64,000 nucleotides of DNA from a plasmid: the sequence record NZ_CP011600.1; one strand, written 5' to 3'. The notes beneath the pieces were generated by a model, which did no database searches, was not told the origin of the DNA, and was given only the letters and a program-made list of their open reading frames with translations. Position 1 is the stretch's first letter. Each line of letters starts with the position of its first letter. This document shows, in pieces, positions 1,078 through 26,078 of the stretch. A program made the translations under genes and the position numbers.

Positions 1078-1093
1078 TGTTAATCCGCCTGTA

Positions 1094-1738: not shown

Positions 1739-1922
1739 GACGGGCGCGTCGGTACGCGACCAGTTCCACTATCAATGCCAGTGCAACCAGTGAGAAGCAT
1801 ATTACACTCCCGACCACCAGGACTTCCCGTGTGAGGATGACAGACCAGGCCAGTAACTGGCGCAGGCAGTTCAAAATGATGCCGGTCATAAAGAGCATGG
1901 CGATAAGAGGGAGTCGTTTCAT
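1707..1922 (-). CDS. small inner-membrane protein (TraQ position)
   Basis: 71 aa, strongly hydrophobic, basic C-terminus. Located where traQ sits in F. Confidence 0.35.
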   Translation of the reverse strand: MKRLPLIAMLFMTGIILNCLRQLLAWSVILTREVLVVGSVICFSLVALALIVELVAYRRARRDRRSSHEIQ

Positions 1923-2374: not shown

Positions 2375-2383
2375 GGGAACTCC

Positions 2384-3181: not shown

Positions 3182-5061
3182 TTCCCCCCCATCTGATTTA
3201 CCTGGGCGGCCACGCGGTCTTTCGCCAGTTGGGCCATCGTGGACGCATCCGGGATTTTCTGGTTATTCATCAGGTCTTCGTAGAAATCCGCGAAGTTAAT
3301 CAGATCGAAATTGATATCCTGCAGCTCCGGGACCGTAATACCCCGGCAGTCAGGGTTATCACCACTGCCAAAACTCACCCCCAACTGGTCACGGCGCCCC
3401 TGTTCCTGAATGATGCGCGCCAGCTTGCCCTGGAAAACGCAGTAGACCTGGCTTTTCTGGACGCAGGCCCCGAGGACTTTGTGATCACAACGCTCACCGA
3501 CACTGACCGTGACCTTTTTGGCTTTTGCCTTACCGATGGCCATCTCATCACTGTTGCAGGCCGCCAGTCCGGCATCCGCACCCCAGCCCGAGTCCTTACA
3601 ACAGTTGTTGAAGCCGGCGAACGCCTTGCGGCAGCTCATCGCCTGGCCGCTAAATGCCCTGACGTTGACCTGGTCATCCCGGACGTTTTCGCCCGCCGAG
3701 GCCAGCCCCGCCAGTTTGGCCACCGCCGTATCAAAGCCGCTGTCACCGGCCCCATTGGTATCGCTGCAGTCTCCGGTTTTGCAGAAATAATCCCCGCCAC
3801 AGACCAGGCCACTGGAGGAGTAGACCTTCTGGCACTGGTAGGTTTCTGTCTGATGGAGACACGTACCTGTTGCTGCATCTGTGTCAGTACAGGTATGAGC
3901 GGAAAGCGTACAACTGGGGTTGTTGATTAGAGAAGCACAATTACCGGTAGAATTTGTCCCCGTTACATAGGAATCAGTGTATCCCCAGCAATCGCTGTAC
4001 TGACTGTACTGGACACCGTCAACCGTAACAGTCCTTGTTCCGCCAGGGTCTGTGCAAATACTGCCAGCACTTGACTTCGCAGTAGCGGTATCAAAGCCGC
4101 AACTGCTACTCCAGGTGATCTGTGGAACATATTTTTGTGTCCCTGTACGGAACGTAAACACTATCTGGAAATGCCATATGGGCGACCCGCCGGGTGATGA
4201 AAATAAATCCTCGACCATGTAGGGAACGTTCTGTTTGTTATTCACTACAATTCGCAATAATTCATCTTTGTTAAAAGCATTGCCTGCAGGCAGTGTGTAG
4301 CTACCTGATGTGTCATACATATTCAGTGTTTGGCCCAGCAAAGTGAGATTCAGGAAATAAAGGTCATTGCTTTTTGCTGCTGACCGGTCAAAGGTATATG
4401 TCATAGTTGCTGAAATGACTTCACCAGAGGGCACCGGAACGTCGTAGTAATAAGGCCCTTTATCCCCGCTCCCCTGAAGAGGCAGAGTCTGCCCCCCGGC
4501 GCTTAATTTTCGGTTCGTAAAATCAATGGTGTAAGTGGTATACGCATAATCATCGACATATGACCCTGTAATGGATGCTGTTCGTCCGCACGTTTCGATG
4601 TCACCCACGTCACGGTCACACTGGAAGTTTTCAAATGTGGATTTGGACACTGCGGTACTGGTGCACTGCTGGCTGGTTCCGTTGAGTACGCTTTCTGAGC
4701 CACTCTCTGCCGCTTTGCCTGCCGTGATGAACGGCGCATTCGGATCAATGACCGGCGACGGGTTTTTGGTGCTGGCGTCAATGACGGCCTGACCGGCATT
4801 ACTGCCCAGCAGGGCAGACTGGCCTTTATCACTCAGCCCGCTGTCCCCGCCTCTGACACCCCCGTAGTAGTTTGTCTCGGACGGATTACTGGTGTATCCC
4901 GGGATAGCGCTGTTCACGGCATCGGTGTTCTTTAGTGCAGACGTCCCCTGTGATGCGCTGCCTTTCCCGAAACTGGACCCCGCCTTATAGGCATCGCTGT
5001 TCGCATCCGCAAAGGCCAGTCCGCTGAACAGCAGAACGAGAATAGCGAGAGACATTTTCAT
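3178..5061 (-). CDS. traN: TraN-like mating-pair stabilization outer-membrane protein
   Basis: 627 aa, signal peptide, more than 20 Cys in the C-terminal half (hallmark of TraN). Follows trbC as in F. Confidence 0.8.
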   Translation of the reverse strand: MKMSLAILVLLFSGLAFADANSDAYKAGSSFGKGSASQGTSALKNTDAVNSAIPGYTSNPSETNYYGGVRGGDSGLSDKGQSALLGSNAGQAVIDASTKNPSPVIDPNAPFITAGKAAESGSESVLNGTSQQCTSTAVSKSTFENFQCDRDVGDIETCGRTASITGSYVDDYAYTTYTIDFTNRKLSAGGQTLPLQGSGDKGPYYYDVPVPSGEVISATMTYTFDRSAAKSNDLYFLNLTLLGQTLNMYDTSGSYTLPAGNAFNKDELLRIVVNNKQNVPYMVEDLFSSPGGSPIWHFQIVFTFRTGTQKYVPQITWSSSCGFDTATAKSSAGSICTDPGGTRTVTVDGVQYSQYSDCWGYTDSYVTGTNSTGNCASLINNPSCTLSAHTCTDTDAATGTCLHQTETYQCQKVYSSSGLVCGGDYFCKTGDCSDTNGAGDSGFDTAVAKLAGLASAGENVRDDQVNVRAFSGQAMSCRKAFAGFNNCCKDSGWGADAGLAACNSDEMAIGKAKAKKVTVSVGERCDHKVLGACVQKSQVYCVFQGKLARIIQEQGRRDQLGVSFGSGDNPDCRGITVPELQDINFDLINFADFYEDLMNNQKIPDASTMAQLAKDRVAAQVNQMGGK

Positions 5062-5678
5062 CGGGCCGCCTCCAGCAGTTTGCGCGCCGTGGCGGCGCAG
5101 TCGCCCTGTTCTGCGATTTTACCCAGCGCATCGCGCAACGGCAGGCTGCCCCGGATAACGTCGTAATGCCCCGGGCAGGTGACAACCAGCGCCGGCACCG
5201 CCGTAATGTGGTAATCGCTGTACAGCGTCGGGTCTATCTGCACCCCGACATTTTTATCTTCCTTCGTCAGCTCAAACATCATGGCGGCCGTCTTGCGAAA
5301 ATCATTATCGACGAGGCCACGCAATGTGGCCGGTATCTTTAATCGCGCTGCATCCTGCAGCATGGGCAACAGACCTTCCCGGGGGATACCGAGGCTGACA
5401 AAGTAAATGGCATCCGGAGTGCGCTGTTCTCCCCCTCCCTGCGCAGTCTGGTCATTGCGAATGCCCTGCTGCAGTTTCTCCACCAGGTCCTGTTGCGCGG
5501 GCGGCAGGGTCATCGTCTGGCCCGCCAGTGAATTTTTAAACTCCTGCAGGGCATTCTGCTGCTGTTTCATCCATTCGCGGTCCCGGCCGTTAACGGCAAC
5601 CTGATCGCTGGCGAAAGAAACGGACATGCTTAAGAGCAGGCCACTGGCGAACAGGGCCTGAAAACGGCGTGTATTCAT
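5058..5678 (-). CDS. trbC: TrbC-like periplasmic pilus assembly protein
   Basis: 206 aa, signal peptide. Position between traU and traN. Family resemblance to F TrbC. Confidence 0.65.
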   Translation of the reverse strand: MNTRRFQALFASGLLLSMSVSFASDQVAVNGRDREWMKQQQNALQEFKNSLAGQTMTLPPAQQDLVEKLQQGIRNDQTAQGGGEQRTPDAIYFVSLGIPREGLLPMLQDAARLKIPATLRGLVDNDFRKTAAMMFELTKEDKNVGVQIDPTLYSDYHITAVPALVVTCPGHYDVIRGSLPLRDALGKIAEQGDCAATARKLLEAAR

Positions 5679-5687
5679 GATCGGTTC

Positions 5688-6680
5688 CTACAGAAAGACG
5701 CAGTTGCGTTTGCGCCACATCAGATAGCCAAAATTCTTTTTGGACTGCGGAGTGTTGTGCGTGGTGCCCCACAGCTGCGTACTGGCGCCGAAGGGGTGAC
5801 AGCTCGACGTCTCGGGATACATGTTCACCATCTGGTAGCGCCATCGCTCTTTCGGAATGATGGGCGACGGATATTGAAAACAGACGGCGGTGTCTGCCCC
5901 CACGGAATTCATCACCAGGCCTTCCCGGTGCAGTTTGTAGGCCATACGCTCACTGACCAGCAAGGAGGATTCGAGCGGCGAAAACTCACCACTGGTATAG
6001 CCCGTGAACGGGTACATCGAGCCCTGTGCACCGGCGCACCAGAACAGGGGAGACAGGGGCAAACCGGCAGAGCTGGCAGCGGCATCTGCGGCACAGGCAG
6101 CCTGAGCAATCAGGTTGCCAAACAGCGCGGCTTCCGGGTTGATGATCATCGAGAGCGTGGAGTCGTTCCACATCGGGTCGACCTCAGACAGATACGCAAT
6201 GTCCATGTCCCCGGTCTGCATGCAGCCGATACTGGTGATAATGTTCAGCCAGAAAATCAGCGGGTATTTATACCAGTGGACGTGGTAGAACGCGCCCGCA
6301 GCGGGCCGGTCACTCTGTCCTGCCGTGCCTGTACCGGTCCTTCCCAGGTCAATCTTGAAGCCCCCCATATTGACCATCACGCCCGGTTCCCGGGTTACGT
6401 CCGTCATGGCCATCGGTTCCCAGAATCCAATAGCCAGCCCGATGCGATAGAGAATACCGACCGGGCAAATCTGGATGGGTGACGCGGGGTTATTGGTATC
6501 CGGTTGCGGACCGGACGCCAGTTGGATACTGCCCAGCGTCATCGGGAACAGGCATTTCCAGCAGACGTCTGAAATGGGGTTCACCCAGCGGCCGTCACCG
6601 GCATTACTCCCCGCCGCCATCACCGGTTTTGCCAGCATGGCGGAGAAGAGCAGGCAGGTGATCAGCAAGAAACGCTTCAT
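5688..6680 (-). CDS. traU: TraU pilus assembly protein
   Basis: 330 aa (same length as F TraU). Motifs WVNPISDVCWKCLFPMTLGS and WRKRNC closely parallel F TraU. Confidence 0.85.
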   Translation of the reverse strand: MKRFLLITCLLFSAMLAKPVMAAGSNAGDGRWVNPISDVCWKCLFPMTLGSIQLASGPQPDTNNPASPIQICPVGILYRIGLAIGFWEPMAMTDVTREPGVMVNMGGFKIDLGRTGTGTAGQSDRPAAGAFYHVHWYKYPLIFWLNIITSIGCMQTGDMDIAYLSEVDPMWNDSTLSMIINPEAALFGNLIAQAACAADAAASSAGLPLSPLFWCAGAQGSMYPFTGYTSGEFSPLESSLLVSERMAYKLHREGLVMNSVGADTAVCFQYPSPIIPKERWRYQMVNMYPETSSCHPFGASTQLWGTTHNTPQSKKNFGYLMWRKRNCVFL

Positions 6681-7015
6681 GAGGCGGCCTCCTCCCGGCG
6701 GCGCAGCCAGATACAGACGGCTCCGTCATCCATATCGTGAATACTGCCGGTAAACCAGCCTCCACCGGCGGGAACAGAGGGCTGCCAGAGACTGCAGTTA
6801 CCGGTTTTCCAGAATGTGTCCATCATCCAGTCCGGTACATCGTTTTCCATCCAGACGGTTGCTGACTGCAGGTGGTGTTCTGCAAGCCAGGCTTCAAACT
6901 CACCCGGGCGCGGAAATTCACGCGAGTCAGACGGTGAAAAAAAGTCAGGGTGTGTCCAGCCGCCCCAGCGATCGCGCACGACCGGCTGAGCCGATATTTC
7001 AGCAGGTTTGGTCAT
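6677..7015 (-). CDS. hypothetical Trp-rich protein (no F counterpart)
   Basis: Internal ATG at 7013-7015 gives a 113-aa ORF (MTKPAEIS...) overlapping the traU start by ATGA. The upstream extension in the track is probably not translated. Confidence 0.4.
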   Translation of the reverse strand: MTKPAEISAQPVVRDRWGGWTHPDFFSPSDSREFPRPGEFEAWLAEHHLQSATVWMENDVPDWMMDTFWKTGNCSLWQPSVPAGGGWFTGSIHDMDDGAVCIWLRRREEAAS

Positions 7016-7080
7016 AATGGTGGATTCCGTAAAAACAGCAGAAGAGGGTAAGAATGGCTCTGGGTAAACGGCCTGTACCG

Positions 7081-7758
7081 TTATTGTCCGGTCAGCCCGT
7101 TCGTGGTGCAGGTGTTCACTTCCTGTCTGACGACATACCAGCCGGTCGATTCTGCCGCCTGGCAGCACCAGTCGGCCCAGCTTTCCGTATAGCCGTCATC
7201 AGCGGCCTGCTGCAGTATCTGTTCAAGGGCCTCGCCCCTGCGGGACGGCGAAACATACCGCTCACGTGCCCGTACTATGGTGGCCCCCACGCGCCTGCGG
7301 GCGTCAGGGGACAACACCACTTTGTCATGCGCCGTCCTGCGCAGCGCATAACCTTCCTCATCCAGCGCATCACTGAATGCGGACAGAAGTGACTGCCAGT
7401 AAGCGGCATTCTGATCTTCTGCTGCACGGACGGCCATCTCCCGGCTGCCAAACGTCAGGGCCACAGGGGCGGGCTTTCCATACTTCATATCAGCGGTTTT
7501 CCGGCGTCCGGTAACCACGCGACCAGTACGCAGGATAACAATGGCCAGTGCCAGAAGAACAACGAAAAGCCCGGCGGCCGGAAGATGCCCCATCAACTGA
7601 CTGAACGCGTTGATGCCGTCAGGAGAAAGAACGGTTTCGGCACGACACACCGGCGTTTGCGAAAACTCTGCCGGAACGGGCCGCAAAAGCGCTCCGTCAT
7701 CAGGCGGCTTCATGACCGTCTGCGTCGCGACCGGCAGCTCCGGGTATTCAGTTGACAT
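7081..7758 (-). CDS. hypothetical membrane-anchored protein (no F counterpart)
   Basis: 225 aa, one TM segment (LPAAGLFVVLLALAIVIL), inside the tra operon between traW and traU. Confidence 0.4.
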   Translation of the reverse strand: MSTEYPELPVATQTVMKPPDDGALLRPVPAEFSQTPVCRAETVLSPDGINAFSQLMGHLPAAGLFVVLLALAIVILRTGRVVTGRRKTADMKYGKPAPVALTFGSREMAVRAAEDQNAAYWQSLLSAFSDALDEEGYALRRTAHDKVVLSPDARRRVGATIVRARERYVSPSRRGEALEQILQQAADDGYTESWADWCCQAAESTGWYVVRQEVNTCTTNGLTGQ

Positions 7759-8038
7759 GCGATCCTCCCTGGCCCGTCAGGTATCCCATGCCGTGCCGGC
7801 GGATGACGTCGCTGACATCTTTCTCATTCAGCGAAGCGATAACGATGGCGGTTCTGACATCGCTGCTGCAGGCCAGCAGCACCTGCAGTGCCGCCCGGAT
7901 AATCACCGATTCAGTGTAGAGAGGATGTTCCTCCGTCATACTGCGCAGACCGTCTTTATCAGCATCATTAATGCGCACGGTAGTGGCATGACGCTTAACC
8001 TGCTCAGGGGCAAGTGGCCCCCGCGTGTTGTGACTCAT
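7748..8038 (-). CDS. hypothetical protein (no F counterpart)
   Basis: 96 aa, start overlaps the traW stop (ATGA), so it is coupled to the operon. Confidence 0.4.
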   Translation of the reverse strand: MSHNTRGPLAPEQVKRHATTVRINDADKDGLRSMTEEHPLYTESVIIRAALQVLLACSSDVRTAIVIASLNEKDVSDVIRRHGMGYLTGQGGSHVN

Positions 8039-8655
8039 TTCAGTGCCACCTCCTCCACCTTAAGCCAGCGGTCATCGCGTGTAATGCGGACCGGTGTATG
8101 CTCAAAGCCGAATTTTGTTGTTAGCGTGCCGTACTGATCGAAGTACACCGGCTCGTCCAGCGCCAGACTGGTATCCCGGATGTTTCCGTTCACCAGAATG
8201 ACTTTGAAATTTTGCTGCCCGGACAGCTGCTGCCTGATCCACGTCATCTGCACCGGATTGTCGCCATCAATGAAATACAACGTCTCACTGAACGGCACCT
8301 TATCCAGCGGATTCACCCGGTCACCTGCCCGTGCGATGACATTGCCGCGCATATCCCGGATGGTTTCATTTACCGTGAAAGTCGGGTCATAGCGGAATGC
8401 CCTGTCCTTTGTGGCGGGAGTGAGCCCTGCCACCGGTTCAGGACGCACCGCGTGGGCTTTCACCCGCGCCTCGGCTTCCCGCTGTATCCTGTCCAGCTCG
8501 CCACTTTCCTTCATTCCTTCCAGCCGCTGGCCGATAAAAGCCAGCAAATCAGGCTCTGTGACAGGAAACAGGTGGCCGAGGGTACCGAGGTCTTTCGCAC
8601 CGGCGGGCAGTGACAGCATCGCGGCAAGCACGATGGCCACAGGGCCGGCTCTCAT
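8035..8655 (-). CDS. traW: TraW-like pilus assembly protein
   Basis: True start taken as MRAGPVAIVLAAM (signal peptide) at 8653-8655. The 311-aa track ORF is an upstream read-through. 206 aa, similar size to F TraW. Confidence 0.7.
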   Translation of the reverse strand: MRAGPVAIVLAAMLSLPAGAKDLGTLGHLFPVTEPDLLAFIGQRLEGMKESGELDRIQREAEARVKAHAVRPEPVAGLTPATKDRAFRYDPTFTVNETIRDMRGNVIARAGDRVNPLDKVPFSETLYFIDGDNPVQMTWIRQQLSGQQNFKVILVNGNIRDTSLALDEPVYFDQYGTLTTKFGFEHTPVRITRDDRWLKVEEVALK

Positions 8656-9098
8656 GGTGCCCCCTGCATCTGACGTGCGATGTCCGCCTGTATTTCCGGC
8701 GTGATGTCCACCGCGCCCGATACCACCGCACCTTTTACCAGAATGATGCCCCCGTGCGTCGCCTGCCAGCGGGTCAGACTCGCATCCAGCGACGCCCCGA
8801 AGCGTTTTGTCAGCGCCTCTAGCGCTTCTTTTGTCAGCGAAGACTGTGCCGTCTGCTGCCTGAAGGTATCGATGGTGCCCTTCATATCGAACACCACATA
8901 CGCCGGCTGCATCATCGTTGTGACAAGCACGCTGATGCAGGCACTGAGCATAAGAACCAGCACAACACACGCGGCAATGTAAACGCTGCGCCTGCGCAGT
9001 AAGGAACGTTTACGCGGGCGGTTTTCGTCCGTGAGACGCTCTACAGCATCCGGCGCACTGTGCTCCGGCACTGAAACCTGAGTATTTTCGTCCTGCAT
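8652..9098 (-). CDS. trbI: TrbI-like inner-membrane protein
   Basis: 148 aa, single TM segment. Sits between traC and traW as trbI does in F. Confidence 0.5.
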   Translation of the reverse strand: MQDENTQVSVPEHSAPDAVERLTDENRPRKRSLLRRRSVYIAACVVLVLMLSACISVLVTTMMQPAYVVFDMKGTIDTFRQQTAQSSLTKEALEALTKRFGASLDASLTRWQATHGGIILVKGAVVSGAVDITPEIQADIARQMQGAP

Positions 9099-9112
9099 AT
9101 TGGGTACTCCTC

Positions 9113-11758
9113 TTATACGCTGGTCAGTCCGGCCCAGCGTTCCAGTTCCTGCATTTCGGTCTGATACATATGCGGCTCGCAGGCCAGCAGATAAGCCGCT
9201 TCCTCACTGGTTGCCCCCGCCGCCTGCGCATCACTCATGTACTGATAGTCTTCCCCACGGGTACTGAACATCGCGCGCGTGACCGGGTCCACAAACACCC
9301 GGTGGAACGAACTGTATTCCCCACTCGAGATCATGACTGAACTGAATCCCGTATCACGTGCTGGCTGGAAGCCACGGATAACCTGCGTTTCCATCTCGCT
9401 GAACTGGTCCGGGTTGGCGTTAAGGTAAGTTTTAAAGGCTTTGGCGTCCTGCAGGAGGGTGACTTTCGTTCCTGAGCAGTCCCACGCCGCTGCTGCTGCC
9501 GGCGGTGCGGCCTGATCTTTGGTACCGGTGAAATCCTTGATGCCCTGCGTGATAGTAATGAATGCCCCACGATGGCGGCGAACCGTCCGGTAGCCGGTTT
9601 CGATAAAGCGAGCGGCATGCGGGTTAGAACCACTGAACAGACGCCAGGCTTCGTCGATAATGGCCACTTTTTTCAGGCTGCGCGGCGAGTGGTACATCTT
9701 TTCCTGTATCGCCAGAATCAGCGAATAGAGGATAGCGGAGAGCAGGTGAGGCTGATTTTCCAGACTCAGCAGCTCCAGCACGGCAAAGCGGGTATCACCA
9801 TCGAGCGTCGGGCTGTCCGAATTGAAATAATCGCCATTTGCCCCCCAGGTACACCACCGGTCCAGTAGCAGCACCAGTTCGTTGATGCGGTTCATGATGG
9901 TCGGCTGGTCACCGTACTCTTCCCTGACGGCAGGAGACTTCATGTACAGCACCACGTCGTCGATACGGGCTTTGTTCTTTTTAGCCTCGAATGCCGCCAC
10001 CACGCCTTTAAGCAGGATGGTTTCACTGACTTTATCCAGCGGCTCATTAGGACTGGCCAGTACCGTCAGAAGCCCCTGAACCCCTTCTGCTGATTCTTTA
10101 ATGTCGCGTATGTTGGCAAACGGGTTAAAACGCAGCGTGGCCCCGTCCAGATAGGCACCGCCCGCCTGTTTACAGAAGTTGCGGTAACTGCCCCCCATGT
10201 CGATAACCCAGCCGAAGCCTCCGGCATTCAGTACCTGCCGCAGAATTTCCTGGATAAAGAAGCTCTTGCCCGCGCCGGTGGTCCCGGTGACCGCGATGTT
10301 AAAGTTGGTGGCACCGTTGCTTTCGCTGAACATGTCAAAGAACGCCAGCGCATTGCGATAGGTCGGTAGCGGACTGCCGGACGCCGCCATCTGCCGCTCT
10401 GCCACCACCGGCATCAGATTGACGGCATTGAAGCTTTTGCAGCGCAGCGTGGCATTCATGTGCTTCATATCGTCCCACAACCCTTCCTGCATCAGGAACG
10501 GGAACGTGGTGAGCCAGTTACGCAGTTGCTGATAGCGCGGAGCGGATATCTCCAGGTCATTTTTGCGGAACACGTTGATGGCCGAGAGTTCGCAGGCCTG
10601 TTGTTTGCTGTCATCATCCGGGCAGAACAGCGTCAGGTTCAGACCAAAACTGCACATTGCGATTTCGTTACTGGCCAGTCCCATACGCAGGTCGCGCCAC
10701 TCTTCGTAAGTACGCTGCGTATTGGGAAACAGTTTGCCGTAGGAAGAGTTGGCCTTTTTGCCCATATCCTGTTCCCTGCGGAACGCCTCGTTCTGGCTGC
10801 TGACCTGATCTTCAACACAGATGGTCCAGCTCAGCAGGAACGGACAGGGGATACCGAGGTCCGGGAAGCGCATGTTCTGCAGATTGTCTGCTGCCTGCCA
10901 GAGTGCAAACTTTTTCGGCACTTTGGTCAGTTGCATATTCACCACCCGCGTACTGGCAACGGTGGTATCGCCCTCGTCCCCCATGATCCTGTCACCGGGC
11001 TGGCGTGAAGTGGTCAGGCGCAGGTAACCCGGATGCACTTCCATTTCGGTACTGTGGTCCACGCACTGGCGGTGCAGCTCCTGATCCGGGTTCCAGTTTT
11101 CATCACCGGCATTGACCTGTCCGGGACGATAATTGATCTGCTCGCGCAGAACGGTCAGGAACTCCGCCGCACCGACACGGCGGGTGTCCATGTGGGCCGC
11201 CATCATCGACACGCGCAGGGTTTCACGTATCTGCGCCACTTCATCCATCACCTTTAATCCACCCGTTCCCGGATGGGCATACACCAGAAAGACTCGGTAA
11301 CTGCGCAGATAGAGCGGATATTCCCGGTTATTAACCAGCCCTTTCAGCGCTGAACGCTCCCAGTAGGCTTTGGTAATGGCGTTAAGGCGCGGGGCCATAT
11401 CGCCTTTCCACATATCGCGGCTGAGGCCGTTTTCCAGCATGTCACCCACGCACTTACTGGCCACCATTAGCACCGTGACCGGTGTTTTACGCGGCAGTTT
11501 CTTGCGCAGCAGATCATCCAGCGCCTGCACCACCTGCTGGTTGGCCCCGGCGAGGGGGGCCACTTCCATAATGAACCCAACCGATCGGCTGTTAATAAAC
11601 AGGTCGGATTTCTCATCATATTCGCGGTAGGGCAACAGACTGGTTATAGAAGGATAACTGAAGGTTTCCTCCAGCTTCTGACGCGCCGCTTTTGCGCCAC
11701 CCTCATCGCGACTGCTGCTGAGGATACCGGTGAGGTGTTCGATAACATTACTGAGCAT
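9113..11758 (-). CDS. traC: TraC (VirB4-family) conjugative ATPase
   Basis: 881 aa, Walker A GTTGAGKS. Size and position match F TraC (875 aa). Confidence 0.9.
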   Translation of the reverse strand: MLSNVIEHLTGILSSSRDEGGAKAARQKLEETFSYPSITSLLPYREYDEKSDLFINSRSVGFIMEVAPLAGANQQVVQALDDLLRKKLPRKTPVTVLMVASKCVGDMLENGLSRDMWKGDMAPRLNAITKAYWERSALKGLVNNREYPLYLRSYRVFLVYAHPGTGGLKVMDEVAQIRETLRVSMMAAHMDTRRVGAAEFLTVLREQINYRPGQVNAGDENWNPDQELHRQCVDHSTEMEVHPGYLRLTTSRQPGDRIMGDEGDTTVASTRVVNMQLTKVPKKFALWQAADNLQNMRFPDLGIPCPFLLSWTICVEDQVSSQNEAFRREQDMGKKANSSYGKLFPNTQRTYEEWRDLRMGLASNEIAMCSFGLNLTLFCPDDDSKQQACELSAINVFRKNDLEISAPRYQQLRNWLTTFPFLMQEGLWDDMKHMNATLRCKSFNAVNLMPVVAERQMAASGSPLPTYRNALAFFDMFSESNGATNFNIAVTGTTGAGKSFFIQEILRQVLNAGGFGWVIDMGGSYRNFCKQAGGAYLDGATLRFNPFANIRDIKESAEGVQGLLTVLASPNEPLDKVSETILLKGVVAAFEAKKNKARIDDVVLYMKSPAVREEYGDQPTIMNRINELVLLLDRWCTWGANGDYFNSDSPTLDGDTRFAVLELLSLENQPHLLSAILYSLILAIQEKMYHSPRSLKKVAIIDEAWRLFSGSNPHAARFIETGYRTVRRHRGAFITITQGIKDFTGTKDQAAPPAAAAAWDCSGTKVTLLQDAKAFKTYLNANPDQFSEMETQVIRGFQPARDTGFSSVMISSGEYSSFHRVFVDPVTRAMFSTRGEDYQYMSDAQAAGATSEEAAYLLACEPHMYQTEMQELERWAGLTSV

Positions 11759-12031
11759 CCTGTCCTCCCCGGCGCTGAGAGCACGGACCAGTCAGACCGT
11801 CAGCTAACACGCGTGTTTTTCCCATGCCGCAGCGGCCACAGATAACAACGTTGCTGTCAGCAGACTCACTGGCTGTGAGGTCTGCCCGGGACCGGTGATG
11901 ATGGTACAGCGCCTGTGCTGAGGCTTCGGTGACCAGAATGTGTGAAGACAATAACGCCCTTCTGCCCGTATCGGTTCCGGTACGTGATGGAACAGATACT
12001 GTTGTTCCCATACTGAGAATGCGCTTTTTCA

Positions 12032-12586
12032 TTATTCCCCCTCATGGATAACCCGGAAATCATCGTTCCAGCGTGATTTTTGTTTCACAAACTCCACAAC
12101 AGCGGGCTGATGGAAACTGTCCTGCTCATCCACCCAGGGGGCTATCCAGAGCCGTTGTGTGGTATCCGGGATACGCATGGCCTCGACCTGCCCCGGCCCG
12201 CTGTACCCGGAAGGGGTGATGCTGCCGTCGGGTATGGCTACCGGCCGTATCGGGGCGGTGGAGGTGGAGGTGTGAAGCCTGCCGGTATTCACTGCCTGTC
12301 CGGCAACGGGACGCGGCGCAAGGGTTGCCACACTGACGGGACGAGCGGGGTTAATGGCAGGCTTCACATTGCCGGGCGTCGCCAGTGCCTCAGCCGCAGG
12401 CTTTGGGTTGCTGCCCTTCGCCGTATTCAGATCGTCCAGACTCTGGTGTTTTGAGGCCAGATGGCTGGCGTCAGACATCGACAGGCACTGGTCGGTGGCG
12501 GTTTTGTTGCAGTCGAAATCAGAATTCATACCGGCGCAGCCGGTTAAAGCGCCGCACAGCAGTGCGGCACCCAGTAATTTGTACAT
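12032..12586 (-). CDS. traV: TraV-like outer-membrane lipoprotein
   Basis: Lipobox LTGCAG after a signal peptide, additional Cys, Pro-rich. Position before traC. Confidence 0.65.
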   Translation of the reverse strand: MYKLLGAALLCGALTGCAGMNSDFDCNKTATDQCLSMSDASHLASKHQSLDDLNTAKGSNPKPAAEALATPGNVKPAINPARPVSVATLAPRPVAGQAVNTGRLHTSTSTAPIRPVAIPDGSITPSGYSGPGQVEAMRIPDTTQRLWIAPWVDEQDSFHQPAVVEFVKQKSRWNDDFRVIHEGE

Positions 12587-12693
12587 GGGTGTCTCCGGGT
12601 GTTATGGGAGGAGTTAAAAAAGAAGATTGTCTCGGGGGGATTAATTAATGAAAAAATTCCTGCATGTCAGTTCGTAGTGAGATAAAGCCCGCC

Positions 12694-13173
12694 TCACCGG
12701 TGGCATTGTTCACGACCCGCCTCCCCGGTGGGCTCCGGAGCGTTGTCCAGAAAGCGCAACGGTCTTTTATCTGACGGAGACACGGTTCCACATTCTCTTT
12801 CATACCAGCATTCAAGATCCTGCAGTTCAAGGTGTCCCTTTTGTCGTGCGGTCTCCTGCAAATCATGCCAGGCCATCATGTTACGGGGCTGATACGCAGA
12901 CAGTCTGAAATCCAGCGTGTGACTCCATGTTTTCAAGGCAGTGGCTGGCAAATTCCAGGCGATAAGCCCTGACCCGAAAACGAAAAGCGACAAAAACAGA
13001 GCCGCGTTAACCGGGTGCACAGGTAACTTCATGGCAGTCCAGAAACCCATTGCAGCGAGCGTAATCAGGATAATCCAGAACCGCCTGATGCCGGGTGGGG
13101 AACCGCCTGCACGCCACTGTCTGATATCACTGCTTATCTGGCCCAGCGTTTGAGCGTTAGTCTTTTTTTTCAC
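12694..13173 (-). CDS. inner-membrane protein (TraP position)
   Basis: 159 aa with two TM segments, between the NusG-like gene and traV. Confidence 0.35.
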   Translation of the reverse strand: MKKKTNAQTLGQISSDIRQWRAGGSPPGIRRFWIILITLAAMGFWTAMKLPVHPVNAALFLSLFVFGSGLIAWNLPATALKTWSHTLDFRLSAYQPRNMMAWHDLQETARQKGHLELQDLECWYERECGTVSPSDKRPLRFLDNAPEPTGEAGREQCHR

Positions 13174-13207
13174 GACGTTCCCCCTCCGTTAATGTCAGTC
13201 AGCCGGT

Positions 13208-13723
13208 TCATGCTGCAGCCTCTCTCGCGACAATATGAAAGCGCATGCTGCTGTTTACCGGGACGCGCACCTGCTGATTCATCAGGTTCAGGAGGAGCAT
13301 GGCCCGCTTCATGCCGTCCGGTTCATACCACACGGCTTCGATACCTTCGAATGCACCATCACGGAGCATCACCCGGTCCCCGTGCTGTGGGGCGACTGTC
13401 TCCGGTGGCGCACTGCTCCAGCCCTGGCTGAGTTGTGTAATCACGCTGTCCGGTACCACGGAAGGCAGGCCACCGAAGCTGATGAGCGTCGAGATACCAC
13501 GCGTGGCTTTGATGGCCGTGGTGTGCACCACCTCCGGGTCAAAACGCACAAATATGTAGTTCGGGAACATCGGCTGCGGCGTTACCCCCCTGACCCTGCC
13601 ATTGTGCAGGCGGACCTCGGAGAGCATCGGCAGCAGGCACGTCACCCCCTGACTCTGCAGCTGTTGTTGCGCCCGCTTTTCCTGGGCGAACTTCGTCTGT
13701 GCCACATACCAGTTTTCCATCAC
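13208..13723 (-). CDS. NusG/RfaH-family transcription antitermination paralog (NGN plus KOW)
   Basis: N-terminus WYVAQTKFAQEKRAQQQLQSQGVTCLLP resembles the NGN domain. KOW-like C-terminal region GDRVMLRDGAFEGIEAVWYEPDG. 171 aa. Confidence 0.6.
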   Translation of the reverse strand: MMENWYVAQTKFAQEKRAQQQLQSQGVTCLLPMLSEVRLHNGRVRGVTPQPMFPNYIFVRFDPEVVHTTAIKATRGISTLISFGGLPSVVPDSVITQLSQGWSSAPPETVAPQHGDRVMLRDGAFEGIEAVWYEPDGMKRAMLLLNLMNQQVRVPVNSSMRFHIVAREAAA

Positions 13724-13731
13724 GTCCCCTG

Positions 13732-15135
13732 TCAGTTAATGGTGTCACCGAGACGAAGCTGGCTTGCCTGCCGCAACACTTCATCCGGATTCAGCACCGG
13801 TGCGTTGTTGCTGTTGCTGGCATTCGTCGCCGGGGTGGCCGCCGCGGTCTGCTGGGAGGCCGTCTGTGCACCGGTTTTCTTCTCTTTTTCTTCTTCCGCA
13901 TCCTCAATGGTTTCCAGGCGGAAGCCCTGCTGGAAGACCACCGTCACGGCATTACCAGCCCCGATATCAATCACCGGGTGATACTGCTCAGCACGTTTAA
14001 TCCAGTACTGGCTCAGTGTGTCAGCCGCCTTACTGGCCCCGCCGCCAAATCCCTGCTTGAGGATGTCGCCGGCACCGACGGAGGCAGAACCACCCAGCCC
14101 GACAGTCGGCGTGGCTGCAGACTTAATACCCTCGCCGAAGCCTGATAACAGCCCGGCCGCACCGGCGTTGGCGATGATGGCACCGTTACGCATCACCGGC
14201 TTGCCACGGATACCCTGTTTGCCCTGGAAGGAAACGTGCCCGTCAAACGCCATATCGATGTGCTTGCCATTTTTCAGGATGCAGCTGATGTTTTTTGTGC
14301 GGACTTCGCCGCGTTCGCTCGAGATATCGCCGTACATTTCCCCGGTCACGCGGCACTGGTCCATGTTGTACGTTTTGCCGTTGGGCATCGAGACATCACC
14401 GAGCAGGGTGATAACCACGGGTGAGGTATTTTGCTGACCGGTCACACTGGCATTGGCGTCTGCCCCTTCAATCAGCACTGCCTCAGAGAATGACCCTGAC
14501 GGTATCCAGGGGAGTTTTGTCTTTTTCGCGGAGAGTGAGGCGTAGGTGAATGTGTCCCGTTTCAGTCCTCCGGTACGCATCGTACCGGTGCCGGGATAAA
14601 AGCCCTGCCCCTGCCCCTGACCCTGCGGATAAAAATGACTGCCCTGCCCCGCAGCGGGTGCGCCGGACTGAGGCGTGACACTCCACTGTGCCGGACCGGA
14701 GGGGCCACCAGGAACCGGTCCGTTAGCGGGAGCACCGGGCGGAACAGCCGTACCCTGCCCCGGCCCGGTGGGGGTTTTACCGCCCTCTGTCTGCTGCTTC
14801 TGCAACTGACTCAACACTTCTCCCATTTTAGCCAGCTGGTTTCTCAGGTCATCGTTCTGGGTTTTCAGGGTGGCGGCCAGCGTGTTCATGTCTTTCTCCA
14901 GCCCGGCCGTCTTGTTCTGCTGTTGCTGCAGCGCCGATGTGGCCACTCCTTCGGTAAAGGAGGTATTCACCAGGCTCCCTGTCAGGTTCGGGGCCGCTTT
15001 GGGTGCAGGACGGTTAAGTTCTGCCTGATGATGTGACCAGGCCCAGATACCGCCGCCCGTCGCGAGCATGACCGCTGCGGAGATACCGGCAATCATCCAC
15101 TGACGGCGGCGCGTGGCGGTATTGATGTTACTCAT
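13732..15135 (-). CDS. traB: TraB (VirB10-like) envelope-spanning protein
   Basis: 467 aa, N-terminal TM, long Pro/Gly/Gln-rich linker, conserved C-terminal domain. Position after traK. Confidence 0.85.
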   Translation of the reverse strand: MSNINTATRRRQWMIAGISAAVMLATGGGIWAWSHHQAELNRPAPKAAPNLTGSLVNTSFTEGVATSALQQQQNKTAGLEKDMNTLAATLKTQNDDLRNQLAKMGEVLSQLQKQQTEGGKTPTGPGQGTAVPPGAPANGPVPGGPSGPAQWSVTPQSGAPAAGQGSHFYPQGQGQGQGFYPGTGTMRTGGLKRDTFTYASLSAKKTKLPWIPSGSFSEAVLIEGADANASVTGQQNTSPVVITLLGDVSMPNGKTYNMDQCRVTGEMYGDISSERGEVRTKNISCILKNGKHIDMAFDGHVSFQGKQGIRGKPVMRNGAIIANAGAAGLLSGFGEGIKSAATPTVGLGGSASVGAGDILKQGFGGGASKAADTLSQYWIKRAEQYHPVIDIGAGNAVTVVFQQGFRLETIEDAEEEKEKKTGAQTASQQTAAATPATNASNSNNAPVLNPDEVLRQASQLRLGDTIN

Positions 15136-15866
15136 GCCCCCTCCTCAGCCGTGGAAAAAATTACCCAGACAAAACCCTCACCGCCGGCGTACAGGGTCCG
15201 GGTGGAGAGCATCACCGCCCGCACCCCTTTCTGCCAGAACTGCTTTTCACTGAGCGGGCGGCTGATGTAGCCGGTGTTTTTCATGCGATACCGCACCACC
15301 TGCAGGTGCGAACCGACGAGCTGGCGCTCAGGCGTCAGCTGGACGCCGGCGGGCGGGTTATACGCCGGACCCCGTGCGACTTTCATGTCGGTGTACCCTT
15401 CCGGTACCTCGCCGTTGACGACGTGGCGGGCCACGCTGACCAGTGTTTTCTGAAACGGCTGGCTTTCTTCCCAGGCTTTTGCATCCGGATTGGGTTTGAG
15501 GGGGACGCTTGCGGGGATAAGGTGCAGGGTGCGCCCGTTCCCCGGTTTTGGCGACACATCAATTGAGACGCTGACGCCACCGGCGGTCTCCAGAAACAGC
15601 GTAAAGTCCTGACCGGTCAGCGGAGTAATCATCAGTGCGCCGTCGGCGGTATTGTCTTTCGTGTACGCGTTTTCCGGCCCCGTCACGCCGGTAATCAGTT
15701 CGCCGTCGATGATGATTTTATTGGGGCTGGTATTACTCATCTGCGCTTTGAGATGCGCATTATTTTCAAACGGAGTTCCGGCCGGGCCGGGTACCGCAGC
15801 CAGTGCAGTTGTGGACAGGCAGACCAGCGCGCCTGCCACAGCCAGTGCAGAAAGGGTTATCTTCAT
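15132..15866 (-). CDS. traK: TraK secretin-like periplasmic protein
   Basis: 244 aa, signal peptide. Size and position as F TraK (242 aa). Confidence 0.75.
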   Translation of the reverse strand: MKITLSALAVAGALVCLSTTALAAVPGPAGTPFENNAHLKAQMSNTSPNKIIIDGELITGVTGPENAYTKDNTADGALMITPLTGQDFTLFLETAGGVSVSIDVSPKPGNGRTLHLIPASVPLKPNPDAKAWEESQPFQKTLVSVARHVVNGEVPEGYTDMKVARGPAYNPPAGVQLTPERQLVGSHLQVVRYRMKNTGYISRPLSEKQFWQKGVRAVMLSTRTLYAGGEGFVWVIFSTAEEGA

Positions 15867-15869
15867 GGT

Positions 15870-16502
15870 TCAGTCCTGTTTCGGGTGGCTGGCGGGTTGC
15901 TGCCAGGGAACCTCAGTGAACGCCGTCAGGCGGATGAGACCATCCACGTAATGCACACTGAGCCGCCAGGCTTTGTGCGCATCCGGCAGCGAGATTTTCA
16001 GGTTACCGTTGGTGGTACTGGCACTCAGCGTGCCCTGCGCGATGATGTCACCGGTGGCCGTGTCGGTGATTTCATCATCGATACGGAACACAGAGGACAC
16101 ACCGTTCTTTTTGATGTACTCCGCCTCAGCAGCCAGTTGCTTTTTTATCTCGTCACGGTATTCGGCCGGAACCTGACGCAGCAGGGCAGCATGCTGGGCG
16201 TCCACGGTTTCGGGCGTGACGGAAAGACGGAGGTTAATGAAGGAACGAACCAGCATGCCGTTCAGCGCTGCATCGCCGGAGGCGGCATCGGAGATAAACG
16301 GCCGGTCAAATATCATGGGCGTGGTGAGTGTCTTCTGCGTTTTATAGAAGTGCCACGCCATTGCACCGTTAATGCTGATACCAATGGCCAGAATAAACAC
16401 AAGCAACACCAGTGATGAGATAACCAGGATGACCACCCGGTTACGCCCTTCCCGGACCTGATACTTCATATGCATTTTCCTTCTGAGGGAAATAAGCGCC
16501 AC
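15870..16502 (-). CDS. traE: TraE inner-membrane pilus assembly protein
   Basis: Single N-terminal TM (VVILVISSLVLLVFILAIGI), about 200 aa, between traL and traK. Exact start uncertain. Confidence 0.75.
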   Translation of the reverse strand: MALISLRRKMHMKYQVREGRNRVVILVISSLVLLVFILAIGISINGAMAWHFYKTQKTLTTPMIFDRPFISDAASGDAALNGMLVRSFINLRLSVTPETVDAQHAALLRQVPAEYRDEIKKQLAAEAEYIKKNGVSSVFRIDDEITDTATGDIIAQGTLSASTTNGNLKISLPDAHKAWRLSVHYVDGLIRLTAFTEVPWQQPASHPKQD

Positions 16503-16520
16503 CCGGAGGCGGCGCGCGGG

Positions 16521-16823
16521 TTACTGCATCCAGTGCCGGTTGCCCGAATCGGGCACCCGCCGGAACTGCAACCGGAGCAGTGCGGTCGGCAGATACCAGT
16601 AAAGGAGGTTCAGGAGCCACCAGGTGCCCTGCCCCTTCTTCAGATGGCGGATTAACAGCCAGAGCGCGGCAGCCACAAACAGCATCACAATGAACATGTC
16701 GCAGAGCAGACCGATACCGGCGCACACAACAATGACAAAGGCCTCCTCGGGCGGGAGTCCGATAAAACGTTTCTGCTGATTGAGGGTTTCCGGGAACTGG
16801 TACTGAAGGGAGTCCCTGTCCAT
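16521..16823 (-). CDS. traL: TraL pilus assembly protein
   Basis: Start placed at MDRDSLQYQFPETLNQQKRFIGLPPEE (ATG 16821-16823), matching the F TraL N-terminal pattern (..YKFP..L...R..GLP.DE). Hydrophobic remainder. Confidence 0.65.
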   Translation of the reverse strand: MDRDSLQYQFPETLNQQKRFIGLPPEEAFVIVVCAGIGLLCDMFIVMLFVAAALWLLIRHLKKGQGTWWLLNLLYWYLPTALLRLQFRRVPDSGNRHWMQ

Positions 16824-16830
16824 GACAGGA

Positions 16831-17223
16831 TTAGCCAGCGAGGGCGAAGAAGCTGCGGGTGATAACAATCAGGAATGCCAGGCCACCAACAAACAGCATC
16901 GGGTTACGGGTTTTCATATATGCGGCAGCGGAAATGAGGACCTCAGCAATATACAGACCCCACTCCACCGTACTCCCGTGCCCGAAGGTATCCTTCGCAT
17001 CCTGTTTCTGACCGGAGAGCAGGTCTTCCGCGTGTCCCAGATGGGGCAGCGCGATGAAAACCACCGCCAGACACAACAGCAACAGATTAATGCGATGGCG
17101 ATAAATCAGACTGAAGGCACCACGCAGCATGCCGATAAACAACGATGACGCACCAGTCCGGACTTCCGGGCAGGCTTCCGCAGCCCCCTCCGCCAGCGCC
17201 GGTTGAGTTAAGACGACTTTCAT
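16831..17223 (-). CDS. traA: TraA propilin
   Basis: 130 aa. C-terminal 70 aa ...DAKDTFGHGSTVEWGLYIAEVLISAAAYMKTRNPMLFVGGLAFLIV... aligns by eye with F pilin ...KATFGKDSSVVKWVVLAEVLVGAVMYMMTKNVKFLAGFAII... Long leader peptide. Confidence 0.7.
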   Translation of the reverse strand: MKVVLTQPALAEGAAEACPEVRTGASSLFIGMLRGAFSLIYRHRINLLLLCLAVVFIALPHLGHAEDLLSGQKQDAKDTFGHGSTVEWGLYIAEVLISAAAYMKTRNPMLFVGGLAFLIVITRSFFALAG

Positions 17224-17433
17224 GTCAGTTAGCCTCGATTTAAGTTAAGGAAATGTCATTGCGCGTAAACAGACGTAACGCGCGGTAAGTGTACATTTTC
17301 TCAAAAAAAAAAAATCTGTGACGCAAATCACGTTATTAGTGATTGTGATGCGATTTTTTAAGATTAATCCTGCAGCGGGGTGGAGTAGGCTTGCTGCCTG
17401 AACAGGGGATACCTCGTGAGGAGGTTTTTTTGT

Positions 17434-18054
17434 ATGAAAGTAAAAGAAAAAATGGGTGACGGTCGTGGCAGGCCGCGAAAATATGCCAGAGGAGAAATGC
17501 AGTACCGGAAATTATGGTTACCGGAAAATTTACTGATGGAGCTGCGAGTGGCAGCAAGGGTCAGAAATTTCACCACCAATGATGAAATCATCAGCCGTCT
17601 TATTGCTTCGTTAAACTTTTCGCCGCGCCGGCATATTATCAAAACGGATGAAGGACAACGTCTTGTAGCGCTTGCACGGTTATTTGATGAGTTTCTTCAG
17701 GCAAGACTCGATGTGATTCGCAAAAAATATCAGGCAGAGAAAATCAGTGACAACGGTAAAAAAACATTTGTCCCGGGAAAGAACCGCGCATTCAGCAGCA
17801 GTTTCCCGGAGAATTTACGCCGGGATATGGAAGTCAGCGCCCGGTTTAACCGGCGAAGTATGAACAGGGAAATCATGGAGCGGCTTCTGGATTCACTGAA
17901 TTATTTAACCGAACAGCAGTTACCCGAAAATGAGGAAGTCTGGCGACTGCGTGAACTGGCAATACTGTTTGATGAGTTTATTTCAGGGAAAGTGGTAAAA
18001 GCAGAAAATCCGCTCACGAAGGAAGTGGCAGGTGAAGAGAAAAAAGAAGAGTGA
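17434..18054 (+). CDS. tandem ribbon-helix-helix (Arc/MetJ-like) DNA-binding regulator, divergent from the tra operon
   Basis: RBS GAGGAGG 10 nt before the ATG at 17434. Two repeats of an RHH-like module (LPENLLMELRVAARVRNFTTNDEIISRLIASL and FPENLRRDMEVSARFNRRSMNREIMERLLDSL), each followed by a helical region. The track ORF starts at GTG 17416. Confidence 0.55.
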   Translation: MKVKEKMGDGRGRPRKYARGEMQYRKLWLPENLLMELRVAARVRNFTTNDEIISRLIASLNFSPRRHIIKTDEGQRLVALARLFDEFLQARLDVIRKKYQAEKISDNGKKTFVPGKNRAFSSSFPENLRRDMEVSARFNRRSMNREIMERLLDSLNYLTEQQLPENEEVWRLRELAILFDEFISGKVVKAENPLTKEVAGEEKKEE

Positions 18055-18550
18055 AGTTATAAGCAACCATTACGCATTATTAACGTTCTGAATCAGTACG
18101 GGCATTGTCTGTTTCACTCTGTAAATATACACACCGCAATAAGAATCCGTAATGTCACGGGGTAACGTCTCCCGATATTATTGCCATATCACAGCGACCT
18201 TTCACAGCGAATAAGGAAATCAGAAAGCGGGTGGCGTAAATGCCACCCGACACCGTCTGTAAAAACACACTTAAAAAATGCAAACGGGTCACCTCAGCCT
18301 CATGCATCGAAAAGCCTGTCCACAGCGTTATTTCGCGTATCTGTCCACCCACAACCATAACAGAATACACAGCCAGCCAGGACAGAACGCCAGAATCTTG
18401 CGACTTACAGAGCCCACTACAGAGATATCCTTCGCCGGGAAACCGGGCGGTAAATACGCTCCCGTTATTCGATATCAGCATCACGCATAAAAAACAGGGA
18501 GAGGAAACCGTCAGTGCTGAGAGGATACGTTCAGACCGGAAACATAAACA

Positions 18551-18580
18551 CGACCGGCACGCTTCCGGTCATGCTTTATT
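18551..18580. terminator. stem-loop (GACCGGCACGCTTCCGGTC) with adjacent T-run, candidate terminator just 3' of traM
   Basis: Seen in sequence. T-run on the + side, U-rich tract on the - side. Orientation ambiguous. Confidence 0.35.
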
Positions 18581-18597
18581 TTTTTAAAACAGGGTAT

Positions 18598-18987
18598 TTA
18601 TTCTTCCTGAATAAAGTGTTTACTTTCTGCCTTATCTTCCGCATCGGACATCCCGGTAAGATTCAGGTCCATAAGCGCTTCCAGTTTATCCTGAGTGTTC
18701 TCTCCCCTGATTTGCAGATACATTTCTGTCATCATGGCCATCATGATACTCGTACCTTCACGCGTACCGGCCACCCTGCGTATTAAGTCACGATTGAATC
18801 CTTCCATATCGAATTTATTCCCTTCGCTCTGATGCTTTTTGACCATCAGGCCAATGCCGACCAGTTCATTCACCACGGACGAGAAGTTAACCTCGCCATG
18901 CGTGGCGCCGTTCTGCATTTCAATCTGGACCAGCTCCAGCACTTCCCGCTCGGTCTTTTCCTTGAAGTAGATGTTTCTTCGGCCCAT
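18598..18987 (-). CDS. traM: TraM relaxosome accessory protein
   Basis: 129 aa. N-terminal region GRRNIYFKEKTEREVLELVQIEMQNGATHGEVNFSSVVNELVGIGLMV parallels F TraM KVNLYISNDAYEKINAIIEKRRQEGAREKDVSFSATASMLLELGLRV. Confidence 0.8.
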   Translation of the reverse strand: MGRRNIYFKEKTEREVLELVQIEMQNGATHGEVNFSSVVNELVGIGLMVKKHQSEGNKFDMEGFNRDLIRRVAGTREGTSIMMAMMTEMYLQIRGENTQDKLEALMDLNLTGMSDAEDKAESKHFIQEE

Positions 18988-19124
18988 TGTCCTGTCACCT
19001 CATGCCGCGCATAATGAAAACGCCCGGCAGTTATATGAATTAACGTAAATACGCTCACGCGGATGTAATATAAATTTGATGCGCGGGGATAACCTGTCCC
19101 GGATAATTATTCTCTCCGCATTCA

Positions 19125-19345
19125 GTGTGTGTCAATCCGGCACTGAGTAATATTTTTTTCAGGTGTGTGAATCCGGCACTGTTCACACCAAAAAGGTGTG
19201 TTAATTCAGCACTATGTATCAAAAACGTGTGTGTCAATCCGGCACTATACTGCGTTTTCGTGTGTGTTAATCCGGCACTGTGCCCTGTTTTTATGTGTGT
19301 TAATCCGGCACCATTCAGTATTTTAATGTGTGTCAATCCGGCACT
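19125..19345 (+). repeat. seven direct copies of a ~19-bp motif GTGTGT(Y)AATCCGGCACTG with ~33-bp period
   Basis: Copies start near 19125, 19163, 19196, 19229, 19261, 19294 and 19327. Upstream of traM, in the expected oriT/TraM-binding region. Confidence 0.8.
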
Positions 19346-19404
19346 GCACGCTGAAAATTTATCTATAATTCACTGATTTTAAATAATAGCCACAATAAAC
19401 ACAC

Positions 19405-19525
19405 ACCACAGTGCCGTTTACAGTGCCTGATTGACACACAATTAGGCACTGCATTGACACACAATCCGGCACTGCATTAACACACAATTAGGCACTGAAA
19501 CATGTGTTAATTAACACACACTTTG
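19405..19525 (-). repeat. four inverted-orientation copies of the same motif (CAGTGCC..ATTGACACACA)
   Basis: cagtgcctgattgacacaca, ttaggcactgcattgacacaca, atccggcactgcattaacacaca, ttaggcactgaaacatgtgttaattaacacaca. Opposite orientation to the 7 direct copies. Confidence 0.75.
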
Positions 19526-25995: not shown

Positions 25996-26078
25996 TTCAG
26001 ATGTTCATTTTTCTGTTTTTTGTGGTGCTCTGGCGTATGCTGGAATTGCGCAAAAAAAGCGCAACCGGAGGCGTTCTC

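Follow-up and report, generated by a model that had tools for sequence, protein, structure and literature searches.

An F-type plasmid encodes a paralogue of the elongation factor RfaH inside its own transfer (tra) operon, and the evidence assembled here makes it quite probable that this protein is an operon-specific antiterminator that uses a private loading site and is wired for positive feedback. RfaH is the textbook example of a sequence-specific elongation factor. The DNA that we analysed (the window) is a stretch of 64,000 nucleotides of the plasmid in sequence record NZ_CP011600.1; it is 99.9% identical to the Phytobacter plasmid pMRY16-398_1 and its siblings (IncFIB/FIC, MPF_F, MOBF), in which rfaH is annotated. 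Comparison with related plasmids suggests that the plasmid RfaH loads at a plasmid-specific variant of the ops signal at the start of the operon. The main evidence for recruitment at this element, which lies in traA, is covariation between base 6 of the element and the base-reading pocket of the protein.

Plasmid-resident RfaH paralogues are known as a kind. Resident NusG paralogues encoded in plasmid tra operons have been proposed to be antiterminators, ‘as we await experimental assessment’ (Wang et al. 2020, PMC7593976), and PrfaH (ActX) of IncX plasmids was shown experimentally in 2025 to be essential for conjugation and to use an ops-like site that is private to it and lies in its 5′ untranslated region (UTR) (PMC11880322). 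Our literature search found no paper on the traB–rfaH–traV lineage itself. The matched variants of protein and signal, the position of the loading site inside traA, and the series in which T, A or G is read by residues 20, 23 and 68 appear not to have been described previously.

The open reading frame at 13208–13723 (minus strand) had been read, from the sequence alone, as a 171-amino-acid NusG- or RfaH-like antiterminator with NGN-like and KOW-like domains. The frame is present, RefSeq already names its product RfaH (WP_047368806.1), and only the length is adjusted: a start at the ATG at 13720 (170 amino acids; gene 13208–13720, minus strand) is more likely than one at the GTG at 13723 (171 amino acids), as the homologues all open with ME(N/Q/H)WY, RefSeq uses the same ATG and a Shine–Dalgarno sequence (AGGGGA) can be read at 13725–13730. 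This sequence is nearly adjacent to the traB stop codon (TGA, 13732–13734), from which rfaH is separated by a gap of 11 nucleotides (nt), so the gene is tightly packed in the operon.

The protein is a true member of the RfaH family and a plasmid-resident paralogue. Its residues 4–98 match the Pfam NusG NGN domain (PF02357; E = 4e-21), and it passes both NCBIfam RfaH equivalog models, with 168 bits against a cut-off of 124 for NF006534 and 156.6 bits against 144.5 for TIGR01955. Scores were below the cut-offs of the models for housekeeping NusG (TIGR00922; 29.3 against 135.7 bits), UpxY (74.5 against 100) and LoaP (36 against 125). Structures of E. coli RfaH (2oug, 8pen and others) align with residues 2–158, spanning NGN and KOW, at E ~1e-43, and identity to E. 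coli RfaH is approximately 45–48%. The NGN residues that bind RNA polymerase, the loss of which had been named as grounds for abandoning the assignment, are present: the contact motifs of E. coli RfaH, FPNYIFV on the clamp-helix surface and HTT (H65-T66-T67) in the gate loop, are both kept, and K10, Q13, R16, Q24, T72 and R73 are also conserved. With dN/dS values of 0.07–0.21 against its relatives, at dS of 0.6–2.5, the gene is by this measure under purifying selection.

Within the window, the tra operon runs from traA to traH on the minus strand (1–17223); past the window start it continues for approximately 18 kb more through traG, traT, a YadA-like adhesin gene, traD and the relaxase gene, and the whole operon is about 35 kb in length. 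Reading along the minus strand, the order is traM, a divergent Arc-family gene, traA, traL, traE, traK, traB, rfaH, an open reading frame of 159 amino acids, traV, an open reading frame of 94 amino acids, traC, trbI, traW and onward to traH. The first gene, traA (16831–17223, minus strand; Pfam TraA), encodes the propilin, and its variable 5′ leader-peptide region holds the ops-like element. The placement of rfaH inside the operon, between traB (13732–15135, minus strand), directly upstream, and traV (12032–12586, minus strand), had been recognized correctly; between traB and rfaH we found no terminator or promoter signal. The F plasmid, as had also been stated, has traP, trbD and trbG at the traB–traV position.

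Upstream of traA lies a conserved control region (17224–17335, minus strand) that comprises an inverted repeat, a run of 12 T residues, the motif TTGAGA and a GCGTTACGTCTGTTTACGC block. The inverted repeat, GTGATTTGCGTCAC at 17318–17331 (minus strand; read as GTGAYATGCGTCAC within the stretch 17299–17335, which also includes the T run and TTGAGA), is strongly conserved and is found at the same place in loci L003–L031, in which a run of 12–13 T residues with TTGAGA or TTGACT also stands just upstream of traA (in the window, the T run is at 17303–17314 and TTGAGA at 17299–17304). The divergent gene for an Arc-family (ribbon-helix-helix) protein (17416–18054, plus strand) faces the inverted repeat, which looks like the operator of the transcriptional regulator of the operon. 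Neither TraJ nor TraY is encoded at the F positions in these plasmids, and a sigma-70 scan of the traA upstream region gave no strong consensus match and located neither the promoter nor the transcription start.

Other features of the plasmid are recorded here as observations. Approximately seven copies of TGTGTGTYAATCCGGCACT at an exact 33-bp spacing lie between a lytic transglycosylase gene and traM (19125–19358), with three further copies of the motif in reverse orientation at a 23-bp spacing at 19430–19498; these arrays are presumably oriT or relaxosome (TraM-type) binding sites. Just beyond the window, on the same plasmid, the YadA-like gene encodes a trimeric autotransporter adhesin of 985 amino acids (positions 6310–9264 of locus L038), between traT and traD and in the tra sense orientation. 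From the annotation of loci L001 and L037, the region at about 25000–37000 holds a metal-resistance block (chromate chrBA; nickel/cobalt ncrABCY) with an IS1202-like element alongside, next to a leading region with psiB, psiA, ParB-like, antirestriction and DNA methylase genes and a type II restriction–modification pair.

A search of the early operon for an ops-like element had been suggested by the sequence-only reading. Canonical ops (GGCGGTAGnnTG) has no match with one or no mismatch in the tra region of the window, whereas a variant with two mismatches, TGCGGAAGCCTG, is present on the non-template (sense) strand approximately 40 nt into traA, at 17171–17182 (minus strand), covering codons 14–18 of the annotated gene. 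The variant differs from canonical ops by G1 to T and T6 to A and keeps the other 10 of 12 positions, including the mini-hairpin pairs G2:C9 and C3:G8, the GGNA loop (the four loop bases of the hairpin in the published RfaH:ops9 structure), and T11 and G12 of the pause. Twelve-base sequences with two mismatches to ops are no more common in the window than expected (53 observed against about 58), so the significance of TGCGGAAGCCTG derives entirely from comparative data; the exact sequence GCGGAAGCCTG is unique in the 64 kb. No second copy that could act as a loading site was found on the sense strand of the distal operon. A placement of ops near traV, as in F, was considered and rejected: the junctions between the 159-amino-acid frame and traV and between traV and traC have no ops-like sequence. 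An Rfam scan of positions 11500–19500, with E values of up to 10, returned neither a JUMPstart/ops motif nor any other credible family. Folding of the 21-nt single-stranded site gave the expected mini-hairpin, yet the result was indistinguishable from that of shuffled sequences.

For the comparison we assembled 33 additional plasmid loci, drawn from PLSDB, GTDB genomes and metagenome assemblies, which with the window make 34. A contig scan of genomes gave six loci, and PLSDB and protein-to-contig look-ups gave more. The window itself is from Phytobacter; the set otherwise covers plasmids of Pantoea, Erwinia, Cedecea, Ewingella, Rahnella, Brenneria/Prodigiosinella and Providencia. The RfaH proteins are between 100% and approximately 42% identical to that of the window, and the order traA-L-E-K-B-rfaH-[cargo]-traV-traC is kept in all 34. 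Across PLSDB as a whole, 1,568 of 72,556 plasmids encode a NusG-family relative of the plasmid RfaH, 1,255 of them conjugative. One PLSDB entry (L019; Salmonella Senftenberg NCTC10384 ‘plasmid 4’) was left out, as its rfaH stands in the chromosomal context ubiD–rfaH–tatDCBA–ubiB; the entry probably represents a piece of chromosome or a replicon that was wrongly assigned.

In all Erwiniaceae-type relatives the element sits at a fixed offset, with GCGG starting 42 nt after the ATG of traA. It is the only conserved nucleotide island within a 5′ coding stretch that otherwise varies strongly, in the encoded protein as well. Positions 2–5, 7–9 and 11–12 of ops are kept across the variants, and position 6 alone varies systematically. 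The window (17171–17182, minus strand) and its clade have CTGCGGAAGCCTG, two other lineages have CTGCGGGAGCCTG, the Ewingella, Erwinia and Rahnella types have GCGGTAGCTTTG, and a more distant Pantoea/Erwinia clade has GGCGGTAGCATTG; the near-canonical GGCGGTAGCTTTG of Providencia is intergenic, between traY and traA. The codon that includes position 6 switches between GAA, GGA and GTA (Glu, Gly and Val) among relatives, which argues against a constraint at the protein level, and the codons on either side do not vary at their synonymous positions, at a dS of around 1. An in-frame stop codon in Ewingella was dropped as proof of a non-coding signal when a close relative (L040) proved to have an intact frame. 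That stop results from a 1-nt deletion in the G-run before the element, in the traA leader of Ewingella americana plasmid pB61b (L013, approximately 3470–3523), a plasmid that is typed as non-mobilizable, has no traC annotated in its record and appears to be decaying.

The base that varies is the one that E. coli RfaH flips. In the structure of E. coli RfaH with ops9, T6 is flipped into a pocket formed by H20, R23, Q24 and R73, with T68 also touching the loop, and T6A ranks with the most severe ops defects in vivo (PMC5995543). The side chains that read ops have been given as K10, H20, R23 and R73 (Zuber 2018), and the structural study of 2018 took the recognition mechanism to be single and conserved. 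The RfaH of the window keeps K10 and R73, as well as Q24 and T72, and has Q in place of H20, S in place of R23 and A in place of T68.

We compared pocket residues (E. coli numbering; MAFFT alignment) with the base at ops position 6 across the 34 loci. All 14 loci with A6 have Q20 with A68; all 4 with G6, which belong to two lineages, have H20 with E23 or D23; and all 16 with T6 have H20 or N20, N, R or S at position 23, and T68. The other contact positions are otherwise stable across the loci: K10 (or R, Q or L), Q13, Q24, T72, R73 and HTT. On the RfaH tree, switches of site and pocket coincide on at least four branches; many of the 34 loci are closely related, so independent events are few (approximately four). 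For two loci the base was predicted from the protein alone before the DNA was retrieved, and both predictions, T6 for P0020 (H20/N23) and G6 for P0013 (H20/D23), were correct. The RfaH proteins of L021 (T6) and L004 (G6) are near-identical overall, with differences that include residues 23 and 68, which indicates point changes and not the exchange of a block.

The base-flipping mode of E. coli RfaH thus looks conserved in these plasmids, with altered specificity. We see an even chance that the F-type plasmids of Erwiniaceae and their relatives hold RfaH:ops pairs that form a natural series and are orthogonal to one another, in which base 6 would be read by a three-residue code (T by H/N20, N/R/S23 and T68; A by Q20 and A68; G by H20 and E/D23) that has switched repeatedly among RfaH proteins otherwise 75–90% identical; each plasmid would thus have a private, self-amplifying switch that is closed to the RfaH of the host and to differently coded plasmids. 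Insulation between co-resident plasmids is no general rule, as Pantoea sp. At-9b carries two plasmids that are both of the A6/Q20 type.

How strictly recruitment depends on the element is also a matter of autoinhibition, for which E48, I93 and F130 are reported as required in RfaH (PMC7593976). The plasmid protein keeps I93, as well as R138 and the leucine-rich LLLNL helix face, and has Q for E48 and W for F130; AlphaFold2, run on a shallow alignment of 26 sequences (pLDDT 78), models the KOW domain as a β-barrel and not as the autoinhibited α-hairpin. Given both substitutions and the modelled barrel, ops-dependence of recruitment is not assured. The change of two of the three autoinhibition residues and the barrel are what would be seen in a non-autoinhibited, sequence-independent NusG-like factor, one that would join any elongation complex nearby or anywhere in the cell, compete with NusG and Rho and need no loading site, leaving the traA element to serve something else. 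Such a factor is unlikely, because the DNA-contact surface is either conserved or covaries with one base of the element, which is hard to explain without sequence-specific recognition; moreover, I93, R138 and the LLLNL face are retained, and the model from so few sequences is of moderate confidence.

The pocket also bears on whether the gene is a back-up RfaH of host-like specificity, a spare copy that serves hosts without rfaH through the chromosomal ops code. The plasmid protein does pass the RfaH equivalog models, the Providencia relatives combine an E. coli-like pocket (K10, H20, R23) with near-canonical GGCGGTAGCTTTG, and host-independence has been proposed as an advantage of resident paralogues (Wang 2020, PMC7593976). 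A spare copy is nevertheless distinctly unlikely: the window has no canonical ops and a Q20/S23/A68 pocket, the T6A change cripples E. coli RfaH in vivo, and close relatives fall into three specificity classes.

It is very unlikely that the traA element is not an RfaH site but reflects a constraint on the leader peptide of the propilin, the structure of the mRNA or another regulator (for example, the divergent Arc-family protein), with the covariation a product of hitch-hiking and RfaH loading elsewhere or acting on host operons, because, although the element lies inside an open reading frame, goes unmatched by the Rfam JUMPstart model and is close enough to rfaH (3.5 kb) for co-inheritance by recombination, its variable codon encodes Glu, Gly or Val while flanking synonymous positions are invariant at a dS of around 1, it is intergenic in Providencia, it matches ops at 10 of 12 positions, with the hairpin and T11/G12 among those kept, and the near-identical RfaH proteins of L021 and L004, which differ at residues that include 23 and 68, point to point changes.

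An operon-specific RfaH that loads in traA would meet several plausible targets for antitermination downstream: a hairpin, a slot for cargo genes and the length of the operon itself. The intergenic region between traL and traE holds a GC-rich 8-bp hairpin (GCGCCGCC-TCCG-GGTGGCGC) followed by TTATTT, at 16496–16515 (minus strand). The Erwiniaceae-type relatives conserve it; it is kept in 14 loci, with compensatory changes at two pairs, and the F-like Providencia plasmid lacks it. By its sequence it resembles a terminator- or attenuator-like signal placed between the ops-like site and rfaH; the T-rich tails are weak in several relatives, so the hairpin may instead stabilize RNA.

The interval between rfaH and traV, after which traV is the first of the conserved tra genes, is a variable slot that holds from 0 to 9 unrelated genes in relatives, which fits the idea that the factor keeps RNA polymerase elongating over horizontally acquired inserts. 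In Pantoea stewartii pCN102 (L012, 7528–12507), for example, the slot contains approximately 5 kb with nine extra genes, including one for a DNA adenine methylase, all in the tra orientation. The slot of the window has the gene for the 159-amino-acid hypothetical membrane protein (12694–13173, minus strand; no Pfam match), homologues of which occur in some related plasmids and not in others. The genes that follow rfaH in the window and in L009–L035 encode small proteins, predicted to be membrane proteins, of two families unrelated to each other, neither with a Pfam match: one of approximately 130 amino acids with a W-x-x-W-R motif, which usually overlaps the rfaH stop codon by 4 nt, and one of approximately 160 amino acids, the only one of the two in the window. 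An UpxZ-like partner encoded after rfaH was considered and rejected, as there are two unrelated families there and the one that is usually rfaH-coupled is missing from the window, giving no evidence of a partner.

The interpretation put forward in the sequence-only reading, a dedicated processivity factor that suppresses polarity across the long operon, is supported as far as sequence analysis reaches, and the following mechanism would account for it. Polymerase that starts at the traA promoter would, approximately 40–55 nt into traA, expose TGCGGAAGCCTG on the non-template strand, which by analogy with E. coli ops may form a two-base-pair hairpin, GC[GGAA]GC, while keeping the pause-associated G2, T11 and G12. 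As the covariation suggests, the plasmid RfaH would read the flipped A6 with a remodelled pocket, Q20/S23/A68 in place of H20/R23/T68, and its conserved residues imply that it would then bind polymerase through the FPNYIFV and HTT surfaces. The modified polymerase would be processive over about 35 kb, passing the putative traL–traE attenuator, resisting Rho-dependent polarity and crossing the cargo between rfaH and traV. The gene order would create a positive feedback loop, as polymerase has to travel 3.5 kb from the loading site, past the attenuator, before it reaches rfaH itself. Through its A6 site the plasmid would be largely independent of, and insulated from, the RfaH of the host, since E. 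coli-type RfaH is published to work poorly on T6A ops.

Set beside known systems, the proposed arrangement combines familiar parts in a different layout. Chromosomal RfaH (E. coli/Salmonella, TIGR01955) is alike in its two domains, its polymerase-binding motifs and its F-type tra operon target, and its sites share GCGG-AGC-nTG, the mini-hairpin and the pause bases with the plasmid element. Chromosomal rfaH, however, is a stand-alone cistron, whereas the plasmid gene lies inside its target operon; canonical ops sites are in 5′ UTRs and the plasmid element is inside a translated region; the chromosomal pocket is H20/R23/T68 and that of the plasmid protein Q20/S23/A68, with a site that has A6 and T1; and E48 and F130 of the chromosomal protein are both replaced. 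The F plasmid has its perfect ops in the middle of the operon, between traV and traR, whereas the site in the window is at the operon start, within the traA coding region; on F, loading of the host RfaH would thus take place 5 kb inside the operon and not at its start. In this part of F (L002, 9240–9334), the perfect ops (GGCGGTAGCGTG) is preceded by a terminator-like hairpin (GCCGGCAATGCCGGC) with a T-rich tail.

PrfaH/ActX of IncX plasmids (R6K, IncX3) is alike in its co-transcription with the T4SS operon that it activates, its private ops-like non-template hairpin and its self-reinforcing layout, but its identity to the plasmid RfaH is only about 31% and is confined to the NGN domain (residues 3–97). 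We take matches of approximately 31% on plasmids of around 43–54 kb to be of the IncX class, as many of these plasmids are 46,161 bp in length, the size of IncX3 blaNDM-5 plasmids. The gene for PrfaH is the first of a P-type (VirB) operon and has its site, with a longer stem-loop, in its own 5′ UTR; the plasmid rfaH is the sixth gene of an F-type (MPF_F) operon and its candidate site lies in traA, 3.5 kb before the gene. PrfaH function has been shown by experiment, whereas the plasmid RfaH is known here from its sequence. UpxY of Bacteroides capsule operons and LoaP of Bacillus polyketide operons are also operon-embedded NusG paralogues that act in locus-specific processive antitermination, and the UpxY families likewise comprise many locus-specific variants. 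Unlike the plasmid rfaH, their genes are at the head of the operon, and their RNA or DNA leader signals are unrelated to ops; no inhibitor resembling UpxZ was identified for the plasmid protein.

If this reading is correct, the transfer of a large group of F-type plasmids, found in plant-associated and clinical Enterobacterales, depends on a plasmid antiterminator with its own loading code, and conjugation is independent of the RfaH of the host. Resident RfaH paralogues control the conjugation of clinically important plasmids, as has been shown for IncX. The natural T/A/G series with matched pockets offers a direct test of how RfaH reads a flipped base, and it would supply ready-made orthogonal pairs of antiterminator and site for engineering. 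The model also accounts for the tolerance of foreign cargo in the middle of a 35-kb operon.
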